From contig OZ242296.1 of NCBI GenBank assembly GCA_965207735.1, forward strand, positions 2,112,001-2,176,000: a stretch of DNA of 64,000 nucleotides. The letters run 5' to 3'. Within the stretch, counting starts at the first letter, position 1, and each line of letters opens with the position of its first letter. Under the pieces are notes generated by a model. The model was not told the DNA's origin. It saw only the letters and a list, made by a program, of their open reading frames with translations, and ran no database searches. Of this stretch, positions 62,714 through 63,137 are shown one piece after another. The position numbers and the translations under genes were made by a program. This DNA is from Candidatus Versatilivorator sp. (GTDB lineage: Bacteria > Acidobacteriota > Terriglobia > Versatilivoradales > Versatilivoraceae).

Positions 62714-63137
62714 TGGCCTTCCCGCCAGGGATCACTGTGGAGGGAGCGACCCCCGCACGGGGGAGGCAAAGGGTGTCCGGATCCCTGTCCACCTTTGCCC
62801 TCCCCCGTGGCGCACCAGCGGCCAAAAAGGGGGGGTCGCTCCCTCCACCAGCACCCCTCTCGTGCGGCGCGCGGGCGTGCCGGGCGAGGGGGGACACGCG
62901 AGGCGCAGCCTCGCTTCGCTTCTCCGCAATGGTCGCGGGGAATCCGTGTCGTCCCGCGTCTGGTGCGGCGTTTCGTGAAAGTCGCCAACCACAACGGCGA
63001 GGGGCTCCGCCCTCCGAGAAGAGGCGTTGTGCGGATCAAGATCATGTCCCCCTTTGATGTCACCCCCCCCTTCTGAAAGGGTGACACCCATCTGACGGCA
63101 TCTGCTTGACCCCCAGCGGTGGAAATCGTCGATCATT
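62714..63137. other. Structured non-coding module with nested hairpins; candidate oriT, single-strand origin or RNA
   Basis: A perfect 18-bp inverted repeat (62737-62754 / 62831-62848) encloses a ~20-bp near-perfect one (62756-62775 / 62790-62809). Homologs lie at 29054-29093 and 15492-15760. Confidence 0.6.

Follow-up and report, generated by a model that had tools for sequence, protein, structure and literature searches.

A 420-base hairpin module of Candidatus Versatilivorator as a probable MOBC-type transfer origin of an Acidobacteriota ICE, carried by hitchhiking integrase elements

To our knowledge, no covalent intermediate has been detected for relaxases of the MOBC type. These proteins combine an N-terminal winged helix with a restriction-enzyme fold and bind direct repeats that lie 70-120 bp from nic (PMC12857230), their acidic motif is DEE or PD-(D/E)XK (PMC6736028), and their oriT is usually parted from the relaxase gene by that of the coupling protein (bioRxiv 10.1101/2024.01.30.577996). 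Elements that hitchhike by means of an oriT only are already known as a class. These include the iOriT elements (bioRxiv 10.64898/2026.01.13.699239) and MGIs such as MGIVflInd1 (PMC5704250), in which integrase elements more numerous than their helper ICE have only an oriT-like region in common with it; the iOriT study covers six nosocomial species with up to nine integrative elements per chromosome, and the word "Acidobacter" does not occur in the available text of that source. Streptococcal IME_oriT elements, which encode their own Rep_trans (MOBT) relaxase, insert into the oriT of an ICE (PMC7563843). In the literature covered here, which includes few subscription journals, we found no description of the Acidobacteriota module and ICE family reported below.

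The module was analyzed in a window of 64,000 nucleotides (the whole stretch of DNA under study, to which all positions without a prefix refer) from the genome of Candidatus Versatilivorator sp., whose handle is G000. An earlier note on this window had described a structured non-coding module shared by two elements, intact in one and split in the other, and self-BLAST of the window reproduced the alignments on which that description was based: 15493-15763 aligns with 63137->62865 at 69.5% over 275 nt (E 2e-21) and 29054-29093 with 62753->62714 at 39 of 40 positions (E 1e-11), the order and orientation of the two island halves are identical to those of the intact module, and a CACAAC...GTTGTG stem is found in both copies alike. 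The number of elements involved proved to be far larger than two. A profile made from 45 seed copies gave 86 genome hits, from which seven antisense self-hits of the hairpin were dropped, and identified 46 near-complete and 33 partial copies in the 5.26-Mb genome. The 420-base hairpin module is real, and its copies constitute one large family in this genome. The linkage to P4-like integrases that had been anticipated is pronounced, with 38 of the 46 near-complete copies lying within 3 kb of a P4-like gene or gene fragment of the clade of the integrase at 60938-62212, as against a mean of 2.5 and a maximum of nine for random positions. Folding of the intact module surpassed that of 100 out of 100 shuffles on either strand (z -4.3 and -5.2). 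The module is not a named element by Rfam 15, in which only a tRNA-Ser of the window reached its gathering score and the module was without a match, in agreement with its not having been recognised before. RNA-run contigs (contigs only, with small word shares) gave uninformative cover, over integrase and module alike.

The window copy (62716..63137, minus strand; nhmmer model 2-433, 382 bits) consists of a putative oriT region and the 3' tail of a gene, designated X, in whose direction, that of the minus strand, the module is read here. In that order it contains the X tail, short motifs, the CACAAC/GTTGTG stem, a long inverted repeat around a hairpin, and a 20-mer. The remnant of X (63065..63190, minus strand, from tblastn and translation) corresponds to residues 283-324 of 327. 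At 63044..63087 are subtype-specific repeats, two direct copies and one inverted, which are candidate X-binding sites; the direct copies are spaced about one helical turn apart and adjoin X, a predicted winged-helix gene. The CCACAACG...CGTTGTG stem already described occupies 62989..63031. The long inverted repeat (62737..62848, with arms at 62737-62754 and 62831-62848) has an invariant core and covarying outer pairs, and within it lies an inner, subtype-specific hairpin with two copies of the subtype motif (62759..62806). Halves of the inner hairpin taken from the same copy folded at -14.7 kcal/mol versus -10.6 kcal/mol for swapped halves, based on 22 distinct hairpins among 24 copies cut out of the 46. 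The conserved 20-mer (62716..62735, minus strand) adjoins the inverted repeat.

The description of the module as non-coding holds for 62717-63050 and fails for about 63065-63137, where the minus strand holds the 3' end of X. Across the 46 copies, length differences beyond X are distributed 15/15/16 modulo 3, versus 32 of 46 copies that keep the frame within the X tail, and by this difference the part beyond X is non-coding. A decayed gene was considered and rejected, the frame being conserved over the X tail (63060-63137) only and not over 62717-63050. Also rejected was a MITE or REP, as copies extend into X remnants and variable-length common flanks, with neither terminal repeats nor target duplications.

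The surroundings of the window copy are composite. A P4-like tyrosine integrase ORF (60938-62212, plus strand, by Pfam) is accompanied by a sharp element end at 60825 (plus strand) that is common to the 92-94% integrase clade. Behind this integrase, and abutting the module, are duplicated integrase 3' fragments (62444..62673, plus strand) in the arrangement of a different clade, that of 63-65% identity. The window copy is a mosaic, as opposed to a simple integrase-only element. Two further repeats were noted here: a block at 62226-62449, between the integrase and its duplicated fragments, of which there are about ten copies at 92-96% and which elsewhere occurs in fusion with partial modules, and a single unit at 63171-63198, between the X remnant and an integrase fragment, which occurs in about ten copies and which we take to resemble a type I-E CRISPR repeat. 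Half of the 20-mer forms the start of four integrase leaders in the 63-65% clade, and module flanks switch abruptly at the 20-mer, which to judge by these sequences is the attachment core of this one clade. The integrase elements have their own separate ends, apart from the module, and att pairs were seen for some elements only. In a partial copy at G000:1540958-1541091 the 20-mer region flanks both sides of the long repeat, one of them joined to integrase-end sequence. Ten of the 46 copies are chimeric, and nine of these ten cross over within 62799-62888 compared with an expectation of 32%, in a zone that includes the best-conserved arm. Since the ten chimeras share ancestry, this cluster near the distal hairpin arm is only a hint as to where recombination or nicking may occur.

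Covariation in the stems, a check that had been proposed for the module, was found in the outer pairs of the long repeat. Over 26 loci, 96.4% of the cells of the outer repeat are paired, and 28 cells have changed on both sides versus 6.7 in shuffled alignments, a count reached by none of 500 shuffles (26 sequences, with relatedness not controlled). The changes are nearly all of Watson-Crick type, with two G-U cells among 390. Under a strict test, 57 of 73 loci have the repeat at most 1 kb behind X, and 1 of 63 has it upstream; some of the 16 loci in which the test missed it show a repeat by eye, and X loci without a repeat are L072, L099, L104, L112 and L157. The repeat core also stands behind X in five of six loci of distant Acidobacteriota ICEs, with arms of 13-24 bp, and the 20-mer is absent from these distant ICEs. 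The module itself is carried by 13 of 13 genomes of the same genus, by none of five from other genera of the family, and weakly by 2 of 12 further members of the class. Among named genomes, the closest that carry X bear the label Candidatus Versatilivorator or Versatilivoraceae, the named and handle genome sets overlapping and hence not being independent. Among 300 sampled genomes of the phylum, X is present in 32 and the exact repeat-plus-20-mer pattern in 10, nine of which have X; in seven of these nine a listed motif lies 190-330 bp behind a listed X match. The expansion is not unique to the genus, since G188, which belongs to another family, has 20 exact motif copies, located beside X fragments and P4-like integrases (L162, L163).

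The module had been ascribed to integrase-only elements, and its source is instead an ICE with full type IV secretion. A complete ICE with a full X gene is located at about G000:1839500-1864000. It begins with a P4-like integrase, a primase-helicase, VirB3, 4, 9 and 10, a VirB5-like protein, VirB6 and VirB8, and continues with X, the module, a VirD4-like coupling gene, a VirB11-like gene (named by sequence motifs), a RepB primase, ArdC and o329. X overlaps the VirB8 stop and the module, which ends with a purine-rich stretch, fills the gap between VirB8-X and the coupling gene; its end is 3-9 nt before the coupling gene in close relatives, the 20-mer sits just before the coupling-protein start codon, and the ICE integrase is 15 kb away. 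Two features by which an oriT may be judged are present, namely an intergenic position next to the coupling-protein gene of a type IV secretion system and a conserved inverted repeat together with putative protein-binding repeats. The order VirB8-X-site-coupling gene recurs in 61 genome and 38 metagenome loci with X relatives. When the genome was mapped onto 25 kb of the ICE, the X tail and module collected 46-57 hits and every other 250-bp bin 0-10. Of all the evidence for a cis-acting site, this selective retention weighs most. X sequence lies beside 41 of the 46 near-complete copies and the whole gene in five, one in the complete ICE and four in small elements that consist of an integrase, X and the module. 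In a separate observation, the flanks beyond the module at G000 copies 2869562 and 4276183 carry a short ribbon-helix-helix-like ORF (by eye), and the small elements there end in REP-like palindromes; a small ORF of ribbon-helix-helix look is also present in distant ICEs between the repeat and the coupling gene.

X and o329 are without Pfam, NCBIfam or PDB sequence matches above cut-offs, and X likewise without a Rep_trans match or, at E <= 0.001, a Foldseek match. The predicted model of X (pLDDT 88; best Z 7.9 and 7.4) has a winged helix at residues 9-108 and a C-domain whose best structural neighbours are mostly PD-(D/E)XK proteins, all of them at Z < 8, a range that according to the tool may reflect merely a common arrangement. 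The C-domain matched SdaI with Z 7.4, rmsd 3.9 and 123 aligned residues, and the repair endonuclease 2vld with Z 7.3, rmsd 3.0 and 103 aligned. Its conserved positions include K178-x-P180-x-A182 and F190-x-Y192-x-D194; D128, E142 and D194 are conserved outside the canonical pattern, and at the level of sequence X is devoid of a DEE or PD-(D/E)XK acidic motif. By the same comparison o329 has the PD-(D/E)XK motif, as P250-D251, N267-x-E269, Y275 and K283, within a conserved series of H-D, P-D, N-x-E, Y and K, and D251, E269, Y275 and K283 are invariant in 54 of 54 members. The match of o329 to Replic_Relax (PF13814), which we take to stand for MOBC, is below the cut-off (18.7 versus 25.3 bits), and weak hits to this family at E <= 0.05 were obtained for 11 of the 54 members; that PF13814 equates with MOBC was not found in the available text of PMC5704250. 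o329 is a single-copy gene in G000, within the ICE, and is present in 6 of 14 genomes of the genus although the module is in all of them. It stands directly upstream of X in five of six distant ICE loci and in five metagenome loci. Based on the intact and invariant motif of o329, its pairing upstream of X and the non-canonical motif of X, we infer that o329 is likely the nuclease and X its site-binding partner. A comparison of the two by hhalign gave a probability of 11.6%, in the helix region only, and a prediction of their complex gave a score of 0.00, which is evidence neither way.

The repeat type tracks the lineage of X (r 0.63 with the C-domain). With the C-domain fixed, the recognition helix was not associated with repeat type (partial Mantel r -0.17, p 0.93; 27 distinct of 29 loci), and because there is no helix-specific signal beyond that of the C-domain, X is only a putative binder of the repeats. 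The commonest repeat type (26 of 46 copies) is that of the four intact X genes of small elements; a full-length X of the type matching the repeats of the window copy was not found in G000.

The split copy lies in a tRNA-Ser island (14090..53039, minus strand) that is delimited by 15-bp direct repeats at 14090-14104 and 53025-53039, and whose integrase (51629-52861) is 77% identical to that of the ICE. On its left side, all on the plus strand, are a remnant of the 3' end of the ICE primase-helicase (14826..15089; 82% to G000:1845842-1846104), a frameshifted remnant of X (15288..15544, residues 232-317) and the X-proximal part of the module (15493..15763, model 153-433), which ends at a 410-bp duplication and is 79% identical to a same-subtype copy, G000:3182561. 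The distal part (29008..29091, plus strand), with 92% identity to the same copy, comprises the inner hairpin, one arm of the long repeat and the 20-mer. The match at 29054-29093 had marked only a portion of it, the piece being longer, from about 29008 to 29091; similarly, about 13 kb do separate the halves, as had been proposed (~13.3 kb in place of the ~110-bp hairpin), but the inner hairpin is kept and only about 65 nt are missing. The right half starts, at TTAG, at the terminal repeat (28996-29012) of an incomplete insertion sequence (28491..29016, minus strand, DDE_Tnp_1_4) whose target TTAG is at the module cut and which we take to be of the IS1380 family. In 13 of its 14 complete copies this insertion sequence is flanked on either side by an identical stretch of four bases, and what is missing at the cut is about 65 nt of module and the remainder of the insertion sequence. 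Because both halves are of a rare subtype, that of only 3 of the 46 complete copies, and both match G000:3182561, they probably come from one module. A short-read contig bridges the left junction, although it may stem from the source sample and is therefore not independent evidence. At 29010, a contig of a different sample runs on as intact module.

The DNA between the halves starts with an inverted duplicate of the start of a PAS-LuxR gene and includes a giant gene of which 5.8 kb are common to an inverted neighbour, and for this reason rearrangement appears to be a simpler account of the split than capture. In our reading, the insertion sequence cut the inner hairpin of the island copy, and a later rearrangement left 13 kb between the halves. 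The duplicate (410 bp, 15758-16167 / 47627-48036, 97.6% identical) spans the start of a LuxR-family regulator gene and has just two full copies in the genome, and the giant genes (22687-28491 and 32381-38116) are convergent, encode surface proteins of 3360 and 4845 aa and share an inverted 3' part of 5.8 kb at 84%, a possible substrate for inversion. Elsewhere in the island, the integrase is directly followed by sequence matching the far end of the ICE (50741-52932), suggesting that this stretch is a minimal ICE derivative, and 30643-32250 has a 67% match to the second gene of the ICE. Just outside the island, positions 3-13326 hold a polyketide synthase, two B12-dependent radical SAM genes and a reductase-sulfotransferase fusion.

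We consider the module to be most likely a MOBC-type transfer origin of an Acidobacteriota ICE, carried by hitchhiking integrase elements, with a probability of roughly 65%, in keeping with the cis-acting site proposed in the earlier note and with the integrase linkage and covarying stems. In the MOBC oriTs of pAD1 (with TraX) and CloDF13 (with MobC), as here, the direct repeats are spaced away from an inverted repeat. At 9650-9784 the CloDF13 record has nested inverted repeats, in which we presume the nic site to lie and whose core is of a similar CGACC/GGTCG type; the six-frame ORFs of this record, searched with the profiles of X and o329, gave no hit. As in MOBC systems, there is a predicted winged-helix and restriction-enzyme-like protein, X (PMC12857230), and the module is directly upstream of the coupling gene (bioRxiv 10.1101/2024.01.30.577996). 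In contrast to those systems, there are two such proteins, X and o329, in place of one, X is without the canonical acidic residues, and the site overlaps the 3' end of X and has 46 near-complete chromosomal copies. MOBC membership is not established, given that X lacks the motif and o329 has it but remains below the family cut-off.

The likeness to iOriT elements and MGIs (bioRxiv 10.64898/2026.01.13.699239; PMC5704250) lies in the integrase linkage and the relatedness to an ICE site, both of which are present alongside a putative oriT, whereas most units here are mosaics of 1-3 kb and relics, some with X. As among the oriT mimics of pWBG749, there are several variants that differ in short repeats, and an accessory protein could set the specificity for a common relaxase as does SmpO, which differs in being a plasmid-borne ribbon-helix-helix protein, X being winged-helix and nuclease-like and on integrated elements (PMC4993578). 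That half of the 20-mer serves as the end of one integrase clade is comparable to the insertion of IME_oriT elements into an oriT; however, the 63-65% clade elements examined consist of an integrase and duplicated fragments, and an assignment to IME_oriT was rejected, the small elements carrying an integrase, X or neither and X having no Rep_trans match.

Four other explanations were weighed against a transfer origin. If the module were a replication origin with X as initiator, its repeats would be iterons and its hairpins priming signals in excised elements, a reading that suits the helical spacing of the direct repeats beside a winged-helix gene, the RepB-type primase and primase-helicase of the ICE, and the restriction of small elements to integrase, X and module. 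We regard it as unlikely, in view of the position of X and the module inside a transfer operon, between the VirB8 stop and the coupling gene, the pairing of X with o329 in distant ICEs, and the lack of matches to either protein among 72,556 plasmids and to the exact motif in viral contigs. The half 20-mers at the start of four integrase leaders, the abrupt change of flanks at the 20-mer and the 38 of 46 copies near integrases would also be accounted for by a module that is mainly an att site, its repeats serving as integrase arm sites and its copies multiplying via integrase reactions. This is somewhat less probable still, as the module is inside ICE transfer operons, with the ICE integrase 15 kb away, the repeat core persists in distant ICEs without the 20-mer, the integrase elements have separate ends, and the repeat type follows X.

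Strong folding, covarying stems and a purine-rich end directly before the coupling gene could alternatively indicate a structured RNA, or a cis-regulatory leader or terminator of the coupling-protein operon that is passively carried. We think this quite improbable: besides the missing Rfam match, the module is kept in dozens of elements without the downstream gene, and both strands fold alike with hardly any G-U cells, which fits DNA inverted repeats. The reading that we deem the least probable of all has the module as a miniature mobile unit and its hairpin as the cargo-capture hotspot that the earlier note had suggested. It could draw on the high copy number, on the clustering of nine of ten crossovers and on the fact that the 65 nt lost from the island copy fall in the crossover zone. 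Yet the module, which lacks terminal repeats and target duplications, continues into X and the flanks of the elements, the common ancestry of the chimeras and the conserved arm in the zone weaken the clustering, and the island break is the end of an insertion sequence at TTAG, with the four-base signature described above. Only one other module is cut by the same insertion sequence, and elsewhere, in the short repeats; among the 46 near-complete and 33 partial copies, none other is seen split around cargo.

With the module as a transfer origin, the course of events would be as follows. X, with its predicted winged helix and nuclease-like fold, would bind the short subtype repeats and o329, encoded by the ICE only, would nick in or beside the long inverted repeat, after which the nicked strand would pass to the coupling protein and then to the type IV channel. 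Small elements, excised by their own integrases and keeping the site, could be mobilised in trans; one integrase clade would use the 20-mer as attachment core, and small integrase elements and relics would in this way keep 46 near-complete copies of the module. A more far-reaching proposal, which we offer as speculation and consider doubtful, is that X and o329 are the two parts of one relaxase, the first a catalytically dead paralog of winged-helix nuclease type that reads the subtype-specific repeats and the second a PD-(D/E)XK enzyme that cuts, that small elements with reader and site redirect the nuclease of the ICE, and that some fifty live origins make of this genome a distributed donor chromosome, with segments moving between origins.

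If the module is an oriT, this analysis would name the transfer origin and a candidate relaxase pair of a widespread Acidobacteriota ICE family, whose X and o329 go unnamed by Pfam and NCBIfam scans, and hitchhiking would reach a scale that clearly exceeds the nine integrative elements known from a single pathogen chromosome. The module would likewise be a marker with which uncultured Acidobacteriota can be searched for mobilisable islands, and one site of 420 bp with two proteins may provide a compact system for how MOBC-type relaxases choose and cut their site.
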